From Candidatus Thorarchaeota archaeon (lineage in GTDB: Archaea > Asgardarchaeota > Thorarchaeia > Thorarchaeales > Thorarchaeaceae): a DNA stretch of 32,000 nucleotides. The notes under the pieces are model-generated. The model was not told the DNA's origin. It did no database searches and worked only from the letters and a program-made list of their open reading frames with translations. The DNA lies in contig SHMX01000001.1 of assembly GCA_008080745.1 (NCBI GenBank), positions 630,001 through 662,000 of the forward strand, given 5' to 3'. Within the stretch, counting starts at the first letter, position 1; each line of letters starts with the position of its first letter. Position numbers and translations under genes: made by a program. Shown one piece after another: positions 1,741 to 30,279 of this stretch.

Positions 1741-3192
1741 CTAGGTGATTTCTTCTAGGGGAGCTTCTGCTTCAGCAGTTTCAATCTGGAGATCACCAGC
1801 CTTGGGAATATCTTGTTTGAAACTCATAGCTATCAAGATGATGCCTGCTATTGAGATAATACCCATAATGAGGAATGCTAGTGAGAATCCATAGAGTGGA
1901 ACTAGCCACCCAAAGAATACCAATAGAGGTATGGATGCTGCCGTGAATGAGGTTGCTCGAAGAGAATACATACCATTCCTAATCTTATTAGGAACTACAT
2001 CAAGTAATACTCGATTTGTCAGGATTCCACCAACTGAGCCAAACAGAGAAGTGACCAAGAATATTATGAATATCATAACAATGGGGATTACTGACGCCAC
2101 TGGTAACACAAACAGAGGTAGGTTGACAAAGGGAATGACCAGCTGAACGGTTTCAGTAGTTCCCATTGGGGGAGGTGGAACTATCAAGAACATTACTGAT
2201 AGCAGGAAATAGAACGCTGCTCCATTGAAAGCAAATAAGCGAAATCTAGGAATCCATTTCCTGGGTTCATATTTCTTTGCTATCACTCCACTTCGTTCAT
2301 TCGTCATTGCCAATGGAAGAAACATAATAGTTCGGAATGTAGATATGGCAACATCACTTTGAAGATACACATTGTAGAATGGCCAAAGAATCAGATTACC
2401 CCAGACAGGGCCCACACTAAAGAAAATCATCTCACCAATGAAGAGTAGCAGGAAAAATTTACTAGACCATATAAATCGGACACCATCTTTTAGTAATTCG
2501 ACATATTCTCCCATTTCTGGACGATCTGTTCTCTGGGCCTCTACTTCTGGAAAGTCTTTGACATATCTGTGAACAAGAATCGCTAAAATCACAAACAGAA
2601 CGGCTTGTAGTTGAAATACCCAGGCACGCCCAAAGTACAAAGCTAGCCAGCTGCCAGGAACAAGTACAGCAGTAGCGGAGATTTGTGAAATCATGCCTAA
2701 CTTTCCTGAAAAGACGCCATATTCTTCACGTTTTTTATCATGAGGCATGGCTACTCGATAGTTGTTATCAAACCAAGCACCCCATGCCCCACTTTCTTGT
2801 GAGATTCCAAGGCCAAAGAGCATGTATATCAAAACAGGTAAAATCAAAGGAGGATTCGGGGTAATAAGAGAGGTAAGAAGGAAGGTAACTGCGTAACAGA
2901 GTAATGCAGACATGATTACATATCGCTGCCCCACCCAGTCGCCTATCGCTCCTGTAGGATAGTCCAGAATGACCTGTATAATGAATTGTAAAGCAACAAG
3001 ACCACCAACGATAGACATTCCCTTAACAGCATCGCCTCCACCCAGAGCTTCTGCGATAAACAGCATATAGAAAGTTGTACTTATCTGAAAAGACATTGAA
3101 AATACTGGAACCAAAGATGCCATTGTTTTGGCAAGACTTAGCCCCTGTTCGGTGGGGTTTTCAAAACCGAAGAATCTGGCTGTAAGGCTCAT
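1741..3192 (-). CDS. MFS transporter
   Basis: About 12 hydrophobic segments; motif-A-like DYPTGAIGDWVGQR in the TM2-3 loop; central hydrophilic loop. Confidence 0.9.
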   Translation of the reverse strand: MSLTARFFGFENPTEQGLSLAKTMASLVPVFSMSFQISTTFYMLFIAEALGGGDAVKGMSIVGGLVALQFIIQVILDYPTGAIGDWVGQRYVIMSALLCYAVTFLLTSLITPNPPLILPVLIYMLFGLGISQESGAWGAWFDNNYRVAMPHDKKREEYGVFSGKLGMISQISATAVLVPGSWLALYFGRAWVFQLQAVLFVILAILVHRYVKDFPEVEAQRTDRPEMGEYVELLKDGVRFIWSSKFFLLLFIGEMIFFSVGPVWGNLILWPFYNVYLQSDVAISTFRTIMFLPLAMTNERSGVIAKKYEPRKWIPRFRLFAFNGAAFYFLLSVMFLIVPPPPMGTTETVQLVIPFVNLPLFVLPVASVIPIVMIFIIFLVTSLFGSVGGILTNRVLLDVVPNKIRNGMYSLRATSFTAASIPLLVFFGWLVPLYGFSLAFLIMGIISIAGIILIAMSFKQDIPKAGDLQIETAEAEAPLEEIT

Positions 3193-3270
3193 TTCTAATC
3201 ACCATATATTATGAAATATATGCGTATATAATCGATAGCCACAATTATTGGACTCAATATGTGACTATTA

Positions 3271-3289
3271 GCACATGTTTAGAATGTGC
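3271..3289. promoter_or_regulatory. Inverted repeat upstream of the MFS gene, possible operator
   Basis: GCACAT-N7-ATGTGC in the 173-nt intergenic gap. Confidence 0.3.
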
Positions 3290-3365
3290 ATAAAGGAATG
3301 GTTGCTTCTATCTACGCAATAAATCGCCCAGAAAATATCGCTATGAGTATATCTGCATTTCCATA

Positions 3366-4442
3366 CTAACAATATCGCGTTTCTAAATCATCAAGTATGA
3401 ATAGAGTAGATTCCGAAAGACCATCTTTTTTCAAAATCAATAGTGCACGATTATACAGTCTGAAAAACTCGAATGGATTCCCTAAAGTTTCAATCATCTC
3501 TCCAAATAGATTGGCTTTGCTAATAATCTGCGTCATGTGATAACCGATCGGATGACCACTCATCGGTAGGTGTTCACGCACCTCTTTACCAATCTCTTCC
3601 CGATAATATCCTTCTAAAACACCTGTTTCGATTATCAAATCGATGCTCTGTAAAGTAGTTTCCGCCACGGTAACTTCATCACGATATGCCTGAACAAACT
3701 CAGTATATGCATCTACAGGATTTTCGCCATAGAACCATCGAGGCTTATCGATATTATCCGCAATCCCTTCAGCCTGAGTCTGGTTCAGAACCCACATCAG
3801 ATCTTGGTCCTCCGGTCGAACTATTTCTTTGTCATAACAAAGGATTGAATCCCTACACTGATGATGATATTCATGAGCAATAAGACGGGTTAGAAGTTGG
3901 GAATCTAGCTCCAGAGCCAATAAGCCATCAATCACCACCCATTCATATCCCCTAGCATCTCTCTGAAAGAAAACAAATGCGATATCTAGAGAGGGATATT
4001 CTATATTGGAGGGGAGATATTCAACAACCAAATCAAAAATATCGGTCTCAATATTAGCAGACTTTCCTTTTAGTTCATCAAATAGGGTTTCAAGTTCCAT
4101 TCGCCTTTTTACAACTTCTTGAAAATGACTCACAATCCCTCCAATAGATGCGTCTTGAGAAAAGTGAGCCTCGATTGCCCTCTTAGGATCGAGCGCTATA
4201 CTCATTGCGTTTTGTAGCTTCTCTTGAGAAAACTCGCTTTTAGTTAAGGCACTATATCCAGGACTGTTAAACAATGTGTGCCATAGTTCCTCTTGGGGGT
4301 TATGCTTAGATTCAAATGTGTCTACTATCTTCCAGAATAATTCAACACCACTAAAATCGAAGAGGACTTCTATCAATTCTTCCACAAAGGAGTAAACAGC
4401 AAGTCTGTCTAATATATCCAACTGGATAGTAATCCAATCCAA
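3366..4442 (-). CDS. Putative Zn-dependent protease (DUF5700/DUF2268-like gluzincin)
   Basis: IAHEYHH (HExxH) with downstream EGIAD third ligand; TTG start 12 nt after the giant surface-protein gene. Confidence 0.78.
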   Translation of the reverse strand: MDWITIQLDILDRLAVYSFVEELIEVLFDFSGVELFWKIVDTFESKHNPQEELWHTLFNSPGYSALTKSEFSQEKLQNAMSIALDPKRAIEAHFSQDASIGGIVSHFQEVVKRRMELETLFDELKGKSANIETDIFDLVVEYLPSNIEYPSLDIAFVFFQRDARGYEWVVIDGLLALELDSQLLTRLIAHEYHHQCRDSILCYDKEIVRPEDQDLMWVLNQTQAEGIADNIDKPRWFYGENPVDAYTEFVQAYRDEVTVAETTLQSIDLIIETGVLEGYYREEIGKEVREHLPMSGHPIGYHMTQIISKANLFGEMIETLGNPFEFFRLYNRALLILKKDGLSESTLFILDDLETRYC

Positions 4443-29705: not shown

Positions 29706-29801
29706 GTTTCTCAGAGAATCGGGTGCATGATTGTCAAGATATAAGGTTTTACAGAGTAAGGAAGGAGAAGAATGAAGTTCACAAGTAGTTAGAATTCAGA
29801 T

Positions 29802-29844
29802 AAAAAGAGAAACGAGTGCTCAGGTTGCTTCCAACGCGAGCACT
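29802..29844 (-). terminator. Hairpin plus U-tract ending the micro-peptide transcript
   Basis: Minus strand AGTGCTC-GC-GTTG-GAAG-CAAC-CT-GAGCACT followed by CGTTTCTCTTTTT. Confidence 0.6.
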
Positions 29845-29924
29845 TCACTGAGAGTGAGTTCACCGCTCTTGCTAGAGTCTTGGTGTTTTGGAGTCGATTG
29901 CTTATCTTGAACGCTTGAGTTCAT
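29820..29924 (-). CDS. Micro-peptide P3 (34 aa), weaker third ORF of the array
   Basis: MNSSVQDKQSTPKHQDSSKSGELTLSEVLALEAT; AGGAGA site 8 nt upstream; 3' end lies inside the terminator hairpin; the repeated motif falls in another frame. Confidence 0.35.
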   Translation of the reverse strand: MNSSVQDKQSTPKHQDSSKSGELTLSEVLALEAT

Positions 29925-29929
29925 TGAGA

Positions 29930-30013
29930 TTATCTCCTGAAGTAAGCGTGGGTGATAGCCTTGGTTGAGGGGGACTTGGTGTCCTTGATGATCTTGGTTT
30001 TAGAAACTGCCAT
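29930..30013 (-). CDS. Basic micro-peptide P2 (27 aa)
   Basis: MAVSKTKIIKDTKSPSTKAITHAYFRR; GGAGGT site 8 nt upstream; 18 of 26 non-start sense codons end in G/C; shares STKA-[LI]-[ST]-x-AY...RR with P1. Confidence 0.65.
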   Translation of the reverse strand: MAVSKTKIIKDTKSPSTKAITHAYFRR

Positions 30014-30019
30014 TGAGTT

Positions 30020-30124
30020 CTACCTCCGGTAGGTGTAAGCGTAGGACAGAGCCTTGGTGCTCTGGGTCTTACGGGTGTTGTTCTTTTTCTCGGATTCAGT
30101 TCGGGAGTTCTTTGCAAACGCCAT
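30020..30124 (-). CDS. Basic micro-peptide P1 (34 aa)
   Basis: MAFAKNSRTESEKKNNTRKTQSTKALSYAYTYRR; 24 of 33 non-start sense codons end in G/C; homologous C-terminus to P2. Confidence 0.65.
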   Translation of the reverse strand: MAFAKNSRTESEKKNNTRKTQSTKALSYAYTYRR

Positions 30125-30195
30125 GATTGTTCACAACATATACTCCTCCAAGTTAGTATATAATGGAAAGCCACGATTATAGGACACACAATGTA

Positions 30196-30210
30196 GTCAC
30201 AATTTGTGAC
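30196..30210. promoter_or_regulatory. Perfect inverted repeat in the divergent promoter of the peptide array and the 148-aa gene
   Basis: GTCACAA-T-TTGTGAC. Confidence 0.5.
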
Positions 30211-30279
30211 CATGAAAACCAAGTGCCATAACCTAAGAAGTAATCAATCAAATAATGAAGAGATAAACAGTGAGTTGGA

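Follow-up and report, generated by a model that had tools for sequence, protein, structure and literature searches.

A small-protein operon between two annotated genes

The window analysed here, 32,000 nt from the genome of a Candidatus Thorarchaeota archaeon (contig SHMX01000001.1, positions 630,001 to 662,000), includes an apparent gap of 575 nt between the starts of a DinB_2-family gene (29705) and a divergent gene for a 148-aa membrane protein (30280). Three short open reading frames (ORFs), designated P1, P2 and P3, lie back to back on the minus strand in this gap, together with an operator-like palindrome, a TATA box and a terminator-like hairpin (Table 1). The ORFs had been reported in a first-pass annotation made from the sequence alone, and all are present as written, including the exact sequences of P1 and P2 and their shared STKA..AY..RR motif; the TATA-like box, palindrome and hairpin with a U-tract that it had proposed were all located. 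As judged by the conservation described below, the seemingly empty gap is occupied by a genuine operon, complete in itself, which encodes two very small basic proteins and a very small acidic one. Coordinates are positions in the window unless a contig is given; the genome is designated G000, with contigs C2, C3, C4, C8 and C12.

Table 1. Features of the P1-P2-P3 unit, its copies in the genome and the second promoter locus in the window.
Feature	Position	Strand	Remarks
Whole repeated transcription unit (~410 bp)	29800..30211	-	Palindrome, TATA box, P1-P3, hairpin, T-tract
Operator-like palindrome GTCACAAATTGTGAC	30196..30210	-	Family consensus GTmACA-N3-TGTGAC; kept in ~42 copies from ~20 genomes
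Two further direct half-sites	GTGTCC 30187..30182; GTGGCT 30174..30169	-	Second abuts the transcription factor B recognition element (BRE)/TATA region; consensus GTGaCC-N7-GTGGCT-N4-ATTATATAC
TATA box ATTATATAC	30156..30164	-	Pattern GTGGCT-N4-WWTATATAC
Conserved TTGTGAA	30130..30136	-	~26 nt after the TATA centre; putative transcription start
P1, 34 aa, net charge +7	30124..30020	-	Consensus MALAxNNR..KKN..QSTxA[LI]xYAY..R
P2, 27 aa, net charge +6, paralogue of P1	30013..29930	-	Consensus MALAK...STxAIxxAYFRR
P3, 34 aa, acidic	29924..29820	-	Variable acidic N-terminal part, conserved end L[TS]xxEVLALEAT
Terminator-like hairpin and T-tract	29801..29844	-	8 bp, 1x1 internal loop, 4 bp, GAAG loop; overlaps the last P3 codons and stop
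Four other near-identical copies	G000 C2:572624-573031, C8:31714-32121, C12:4341-4750, C2:311739-312149		88–98% identity
Second regulon member in the window, MFS_1 transporter gene 3192..1741	1741..3290	-	Degenerate palindrome; promoter core 3242..3224, 31 nt upstream

The stretch 30211..29800 is one of five near-identical copies in the genome. When the copies were aligned with their flanks, the homology was found to start exactly at the palindrome TAGTCACAAATTGTGACTA and to stop after the hairpin and T-rich tract, and the flanks are unrelated; no inverted terminal repeats or target duplications are present in this alignment. Four copies are found in a genome of the same genus, and several in most genomes of the family. 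That the unit recurs five times here and in nearly all genomes of the family is far beyond chance. Many of the copies lie at contig ends, as expected because repeats break assemblies.

At least three copies occupy positions that are conserved across genera: beside the RNase P RNA gene and cbf5 on a contig with ribosomal-protein genes, after the PolX gene, and near tuf. The copy on C12 shares 81% identity with the orthologue at the corresponding position in the sister genome, as compared with 89–92% with the other copies in its own genome, and the copies of the sister genome likewise cluster together. The copies are therefore old paralogues that gene conversion has homogenised, and such concerted evolution fits selection for dosage.

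A sixth, divergent P1'-P2'-P3' cassette lies on the minus strand at G000 C2:~49400-49870. The C-terminal ends of its peptides are AVALYHAYVYRR, STKAIGYSYQYR and DEVLRLECT. The cassette has a hairpin and T-tract of its own, and the promoter in front of it is a different one, with GGTTTG..CAAACC palindromes.

Selection on the reading frames and the terminator

Across ~42 loci from ~20 genomes, the starts and stops of the three ORFs are kept and the middle parts have diverged. Among nine close copies, the ratio of non-synonymous to synonymous polymorphism (pN/pS) is 0.43 for P1, 0.13 for P2 and 0.35 for P3 in their own frames, as compared with 0.8–3.4 in shifted frames (2.0–2.4 for P1). An in-frame indel of 6 nt falls within P1, and one of 1 nt in the spacer between P1 and P2. 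These data indicate purifying selection on all three ORFs in their own frames. The first-pass annotation had looked to a dN/dS below one, synteny and copy number as marks of a genuine locus, and pN/pS of 0.13–0.43, syntenic positions and five copies agree with this. Among the findings that, according to it, would speak against the ORFs were loci conserving nucleotides or structure without reading frame and ribosome footprints in an overlapping frame of 106 aa. Homologous loci keep the reading frames and not the nucleotides alone, and the 106-aa frame (30222..29902, minus strand, +1 frame) was rejected as a gene, with pN/pS of 2.4–3.4 and the 1-nt spacer indel breaking or fusing it in other copies.

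P3 had been considered the weaker member of the array. Instead, its last eight residues (EVLALEAT) form the most conserved peptide segment of the unit. The codons of this end vary synonymously across genera (Leu as TTG, TTA, CTT, CTG or CTA, Ala as GCA, GCG, GCT or GCC, Thr as ACC, ACG or ACA, and Glu too); therefore the peptide itself appears to be under selection. The hairpin that overlaps the end of P3 is evidently selected as well. The segment 29844..29815 has a folding energy of -18.1 kcal/mol (z = -2.0) and is followed by the T-tract, and compensatory changes in the stem were found in two loci (C>T with G>A in L019, G>A with C>T in L024). In a third, L048, a wholly different 8-bp hairpin is located at the same place.

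The sharp common ends of the copies, with a hairpin-forming palindrome on the left and a hairpin on the right, and their tendency to break assemblies at contig ends might suggest a miniature mobile element or a structured RNA gene in which the ORFs are incidental; the transcript also folds somewhat better than shuffled sequences (z = -2.4). However, neither frame-specific purifying selection nor synonymous variation of conserved peptide ends would be expected of a non-coding element, and the left "end" is a promoter that is used by ordinary genes too. Scans with Rfam 15 and for tRNAs gave nothing in the window or in the other four copies, the only hit being the RNase P RNA beside the C12 copy. 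A non-coding element is thus regarded as highly improbable. Mobile elements in particular, whether miniature inverted-repeat transposable elements, elements with IS200/IS605-like end hairpins or palindrome-associated transposable elements, were ruled out by the synteny of the copies across genera, the lack of terminal inverted repeats and target duplications, and the frame-specific selection.

Translation signals and codon use

The 16S rRNA of this genome ends in GGATCACCTCCT at its 3' end. P1 terminates with CGG AGG TAG and P2 with AGG AGA TAA, which contain GGAGG(T) and AGGAG, respectively, 8–10 nt before the next ATG; the Shine-Dalgarno (SD) sequence of P2, GGAGGT, is thereby formed by the stop codon of P1 and the codons just before it. 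The P1 ORF of other genera terminates with GTG AGG TGA, that is, GAGGTGA. The proposal that the terminal Arg-Arg codons double as the ribosome-binding site of the next ORF is hence confirmed by the 16S rRNA 3' end. Terminal Arg is encoded by AGG or AGA because these codons also form the SD sequence, whereas for internal Arg the preferred codon is CGT, favoured in ribosomal-protein genes.

Codons ending in G or C make up 24 of 33 in P1 and 18 of 26 in P2, exactly as counted in the first-pass annotation, and the G+C content at third codon positions of neighbouring genes is 0.30–0.39. The ribosomal-protein genes of this genome favour AAG, ACC, AAC, TTC, GAC, CAC, GTC, CGT and GGT. On a codon axis defined by these genes, P1 and P2 together score 0.163, above all 1,849 long ORFs, with -0.11 and 0.04 in the other two frames; random windows of 60 codons attain this score 0.14% of the time. 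By codon use and copy number, the locus is predicted to be among the most strongly expressed of the cell. The frame-specific selection and extreme codon adaptation support the earlier suggestion that the locus is dedicated to basic K/S/T-rich peptides and probably expressed at a high level.

Properties and novelty of the peptides

The opposite charges of the peptides are a property of the family, with mean net charges of +4.8 for P1, +5.7 for P2 and -3.8 for P3. Structure prediction with AlphaFold2 gave a single helix for P1 (residues 3-33, mean predicted local distance difference test (pLDDT) 68), and a disordered P3 with a C-terminal helix at residues 25-32 (pLDDT 80–85). Prediction of a P1+P2+P3 complex gave a score of 0.11 against a mark of 0.32. 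The mean Eisenberg hydrophobicity is -0.2 to -0.5 and the helical moment 0.22–0.36; such negative hydrophobicity and modest moments argue against membrane-lytic peptides. A likeness of the segment RKTQSTKAL to the histone H3 tail was judged superficial. The Lys of STKA is K, D, E, R, N or Q across the family, and the idea of a histone-tail-like modification substrate is weakened because this Lys is not conserved.

No match for P1, P2 or P3 was found in Pfam (even at E ≤ 10), NCBIfam or the ESM Atlas, in line with the statement of the first-pass annotation that no named family was recognised. A profile search of 1.84 billion representatives gave 42 matches, nearly all of them unnamed ORFs of 29–37 aa from the same family. 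Among these, a match of 532 aa was rejected as a spurious repeat protein and the longer matches as gene calls extended upstream. Two marine-sediment DNA runs of one study contain the stretch, and none of RNA type is listed as containing it. In the literature, no description was found of small ORFs or small proteins like these in Thorarchaeota, nor of the motif strings. With no matching family model, solved structure, named protein or paper, the peptides are rated new.

Promoter architecture and distribution

The promoter has the same layout in all copies, consisting of GTmACA-N3-TGTGAC, ~9 nt, GTGACC, 7 nt, GTGGCT, 4 nt, ATTATATAC, ~22 nt, TTGTGAA, 5–6 nt and the ATG of P1. Half-sites resembling GTGAC are thus repeated from about -75 to the TATA box. 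From the TATA-to-start spacing of archaea, transcription is inferred to start within TTGTGAA, which gives a leader of ~8–11 nt.

The promoter core GTGGCT-N4-WWTATATAC is present in 72 of 76 genomes of the family and in 2 of 224 genomes from other families of the phylum; the reversed control gave 0 in the family. Matches to a P1 profile are distributed in the same way, occurring in 23 of 26 family genomes (up to 11 per genome) and 0 of 124 other genomes of the phylum. The unit is, therefore, restricted to one family of Thorarchaeota within the Asgard archaea, and the evidence presented so far indicates that the window locus is one copy of a family-specific multicopy operon for three micro-proteins, of which P1 and P2 are basic and probably single helices, and P3 is acidic.

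In the whole genome, only seven sites of the palindrome exist. Five belong to the cassettes, one to a locus for a transporter of the major facilitator superfamily (MFS), and one to the promoter of a bactofilin-like gene. The last of these (G000 C3:523367-525044; L052/L076) comprises a gene for a 107-aa Sso10a-family winged-helix protein, the palindrome in a shortened promoter with a TATA box, and a 414-aa bactofilin-like gene. This order is kept in at least 11 of 14 family loci, in several genera. With the palindrome promoter directly following the winged helix-turn-helix (wHTH) gene in these loci, the Sso10a-family protein is a candidate regulator, if a weak one.

Exporters under the same promoter

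To establish which genes the promoter serves, 40 promoter sites were sampled in other genomes. P1-P2-P3 units account for ~13 of these. At nine sites P1, with or without P2, is followed by an exporter of the DHA3/MFS_3 type, for which the nearest named relatives are Mef(A), EntS and Tap. At ten sites the promoter leads to an MFS_1-family gene, with either P1(-P2) or nothing in between. One site has a P2-like ORF and then an S41 peptidase gene. The coupling can be close, with the P2 stop only 5 nt from the pump start in L074 and L101. Viewed from the transporters, 37 of 52 MFS_1-family loci in Thorarchaeota have the promoter; it directly precedes the pump gene at 16 of them and is separated from it by P1/P2 ORFs at ~21. 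These counts argue firmly that one promoter-defined regulon joins the micro-protein operon and efflux transporters.

The window itself includes such a transporter locus (Table 1). No match for its MFS protein was found in a PDB sequence search, and a gene for a DUF5700 putative zinc peptidase (4442..3366) lies just upstream. At G000 C4:63943-65715 (L006), a full palindrome promoter is followed by a 33-aa ORF (MKPVIKK...ENLYYEYRWGV) and a 479-aa MFS_1 paralogue, in the same order as in the sister genome (L115). Two promoter copies 1.7 kb apart are found in L056 (G237 C1:570800-574200); the first is followed by a P2-like ORF and, after 20 nt, a 490-aa cytoplasmic S41 peptidase gene, and the second by a P2-like ORF, a 71-aa ORF and an MFS_1 pump gene.

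The variety of cargo that follows the promoter and P1(+P2), which includes DHA3 pumps, MFS_1 pumps, an S41 peptidase, a membrane protein and P3, would suit cis-acting leader peptides. Ribosome stalling at the C-terminal ends of P1 and P2 would then control translation of the downstream P3, pump or peptidase, like the bacterial mef, erm and cat leaders. The strongest conservation is indeed in the last 12–14 residues, beside the stop codon, and the SD sequence of the next gene lies under the terminating ribosome. However, conservation extends to MALA(K/T)N at the N-terminus and to KKN in the middle, a terminator follows P3 with no pump in most of the units of this genome, and at 16 of the 52 pump loci the promoter is present and a peptide ORF is not. 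Alternative hairpins that could mask the pump start are absent where the gap is 5 nt, and leaders would account neither for five homogenised copies nor for the extreme codon adaptation. Control by leader peptides is accordingly considered improbable.

The single locus at which a P2-like ORF is joined to the gene for a cytoplasmic S41 C-terminal processing peptidase raises the question of ribosomally synthesised and post-translationally modified peptides (RiPPs). P1 and P2 would be precursors with a short C-terminal core (YAYTYRR, AYFRR) that is modified or excised by enzymes encoded elsewhere, and the MFS pumps would export the product, as MccC does with microcin C. A small product is within the capacity of an MFS pump, and the prochlorosins are a precedent for dispersed multicopy precursors with a conserved recognition part. 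Nevertheless, no RiPP maturase is linked at the ~80 loci examined, the one S41 peptidase locus apart, and no S41 peptidase was found in this genome. The aromatic positions are only loosely conserved (Y/F/H, and D/Q/L/E in P2), and the part expected to be a variable core is the most conserved part. A RiPP pathway is for these reasons given a low probability, similar to that of the leader peptides.

Genes adjoining the five copies

The five copies are adjoined by genes for DinB_2, membrane, PolX, GNAT, DsbD-like, FtsX/MacB-like and DsrE-like proteins and for RNase P RNA. Of these, the gene for archaeal RNase P RNA (Rfam RF00373, 163 bits; G000 C12:4769-5102, equivalent to L004:1929-2262 on the minus strand) converges on the C12 copy at ~19 nt from its end, and the C12 contig also carries a large ribosomal-protein gene cluster. 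In the region of the copy near tuf, a match to EF-1alpha (GTP_EFTU) at G000 C2:310307-310999 (minus strand) crosses one in-frame TGA.

The same copy is adjoined by a RimJ/RimL-like GNAT (Acetyltransf_3) gene at G000 C2:311167-311748. In several other genera (L066, L073, L098, L107 and L108), a gene of this kind is found downstream of P1-P2-P3 units, at a distance of ~1.1 kb. The neighbourhood may reflect shared ancestry of the position or a functional link; P1 and P2 begin with Met-Ala.

Proposed function

The explanation that is favoured here, and taken as a whole is held to be moderately probable, is that the operon is inducible and supplies abundant P1 and P2, which act with exporters. A dedicated regulator, for which the Sso10a-family winged-helix protein is the candidate, would switch on the whole set together, and on induction five copies with optimal codons would yield very large amounts of peptide. 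P1 and P2 would be functional products, not leader peptides. They would act with the exporters, the most likely case being export, as an effector or signal, of the peptides themselves or of a fragment of their conserved C-terminal part. This step alone, in which the pumps would export P1/P2 or a fragment or act together with them, is considered possible but less than probable. In stand-alone units P3 would fill the slot of the exporter, perhaps partnering the basic peptides as an acidic protein of the cytoplasm.

Several observations weigh against this explanation. A signal peptide or known leader is lacking in P1-P3, and the loci have no linked modification enzyme. MFS pumps export small molecules and very short peptides and are not known to export helices of 30 residues. 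The peptides are too hydrophilic for membrane-active bacteriocins or peptides resembling phenol-soluble modulins (PSMs), and none of the five copies in this genome adjoins a pump. The wHTH protein is found in families without the promoter as well, which makes its assignment as the regulator weak, and co-regulation alone would explain the shared promoter.

The lack of an export signal and the consistent charges would also be accounted for if P1 and P2 were intracellular polycations. Induced in stress, they would remain in the cytoplasm and bind nucleic acids, ribosomes or another polyanion, with P3 as the acidic counter-partner and the pumps merely co-regulated. Codon use like that of ribosomal-protein genes is consistent with such a role, as are the five copies under concerted evolution, which fit a bulk need. 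Three of the five copies, moreover, are beside housekeeping genes for translation or nucleic acids, namely those on the contig with RNase P RNA, cbf5 and ribosomal-protein genes, in the tuf-S7-S12 region, and by PolX. On the other hand, P1 and P2 would repeatedly share a transcript with, and be translationally coupled to, exporters of two unrelated MFS subfamilies, which co-regulation does not require, and the conserved ST.A[IL]..AY points to a specific partner over general charge. A purely intracellular role is thus considered rather unlikely.

The favoured explanation, in which P1 and P2 act with exporters, may be extended to a self-regulated circuit of peptide secretion. The MFS pumps would export P1/P2 or their C-terminal fragments, which would serve outside as a signal or effector that feeds back on their own promoter via the Sso10a-family regulator, and P3 would be an intracellular antagonist. 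In this full form the proposal is unlikely; if true, it would be the first peptide-based communication or secreted-peptide system in Asgard archaea and among the first in any archaeon.

Comparison with known systems

The psm-alpha operon of Staphylococcus aureus with its Pmt exporter resembles the unit in having stand-alone, tandem, paralogous peptide ORFs of ~20–35 residues, which are missed by annotation, lack a signal peptide and have their own ribosome-binding sites. Further points of likeness, predicted or proposed for the unit, are single helices, very high expression, a promoter bound by a dedicated regulator and a separately encoded exporter in the circuit. However, PSMs are hydrophobic and amphipathic and leave through an ATP-binding cassette (ABC) exporter, whereas P1 and P2 are strongly hydrophilic, the pumps are of the MFS and there is a third, acidic peptide. 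The tandem stand-alone ORFs without a signal peptide are shared and a hydrophobic face is not, and the Pfam models of PSM-alpha and PSM-beta gave no match to P1-P3 at E ≤ 10.

In the leaderless bacteriocins aureocin A70 and garvicin KS, small cationic peptide genes also stand in a row, in many loci with an export or immunity transporter after them, and in the case of microcin C a tiny structural gene is in an operon with the MFS exporter MccC. Unlike these, the unit encodes no hydrophobic or Trp-rich core, has no family match and no maturation genes, and is chromosomal and syntenic, not plasmid-borne. Models of bacteriocins and leaders in NCBIfam/TIGRFAM and Pfam did not match any of the three peptides, and 0 of 20 P3 homologues matched a leader model at E ≤ 10. 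The end of P3, L[ST]xxEVLALEAT, has some likeness to the double-glycine leader pattern LSxxELxxIxGG; no leader model supports it, and this assignment was rejected. Neither an ABC or peptidase-containing ABC (PCAT) exporter nor an immunity gene is linked, the linked transporters being MFS_1 and MFS_3/DHA3. A stand-alone 174-aa Peptidase_C39 ORF was found at G000 C3:519744-520268, ~3 kb from the wHTH locus and not linked to the unit.

Genes of the Phr, SHP and ComS types in Firmicutes are likewise unannotated small ORFs, often multicopy, with a functional conserved C-terminus and a promoter under the cognate regulator, and their products need export and proteolysis. By contrast, the end of P2 (YFRR) is invariant across genera, not diversified, and no Opp-type importer is linked; a receptor-regulator of the RRNPP/Rgg type with tetratricopeptide repeats is not adjacent to any of the five copies. 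The 49-aa AcrZ of E. coli, which binds the AcrB pump and is co-regulated with it, likewise belongs to a regulon of efflux pumps, but it is a transmembrane helix, whereas P1, P2 and P3 have no hydrophobic segment. The leader peptides of mef, erm and cat/cml are short ORFs, some directly before a DHA3-type pump gene, with conserved C-terminal residues by the stop, and the pumps found here have Mef(A) among their nearest named relatives. The peptides of the unit differ in being conserved over their full length and encoded in stand-alone terminated units in five copies, and attenuator hairpins are lacking: the window unit ends in its own terminator, and the gap to a pump gene can be as small as 5 nt, with no hairpin.

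Significance

Asgard archaea are the closest known relatives of eukaryotes. Few have been cultured, and their biology is mostly deduced from annotated genes of more than 50–100 codons. The P1-P2-P3 unit represents a gene family that is invisible to standard annotation, and would define a whole regulon consisting of an operator, a candidate regulator, pumps and peptides, in which the family-specific promoter would also govern most copies of two exporter families. New here are the multicopy state, concerted evolution and synteny of the unit, the test of its codon adaptation and the finding that both the P3 end and the hairpin are selected, as well as the counts across the family, the figures that link the unit to two families of exporters and the conserved wHTH-palindrome-bactofilin locus. 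For metatranscriptomes and metaproteomes from marine sediments, the unit also serves as a sharp marker. Should the peptides prove to be exported, this would pose the question whether peptides serve in signalling or antagonism in Asgard archaea; if they stay inside, they would constitute a new class of abundant polycationic micro-proteins.

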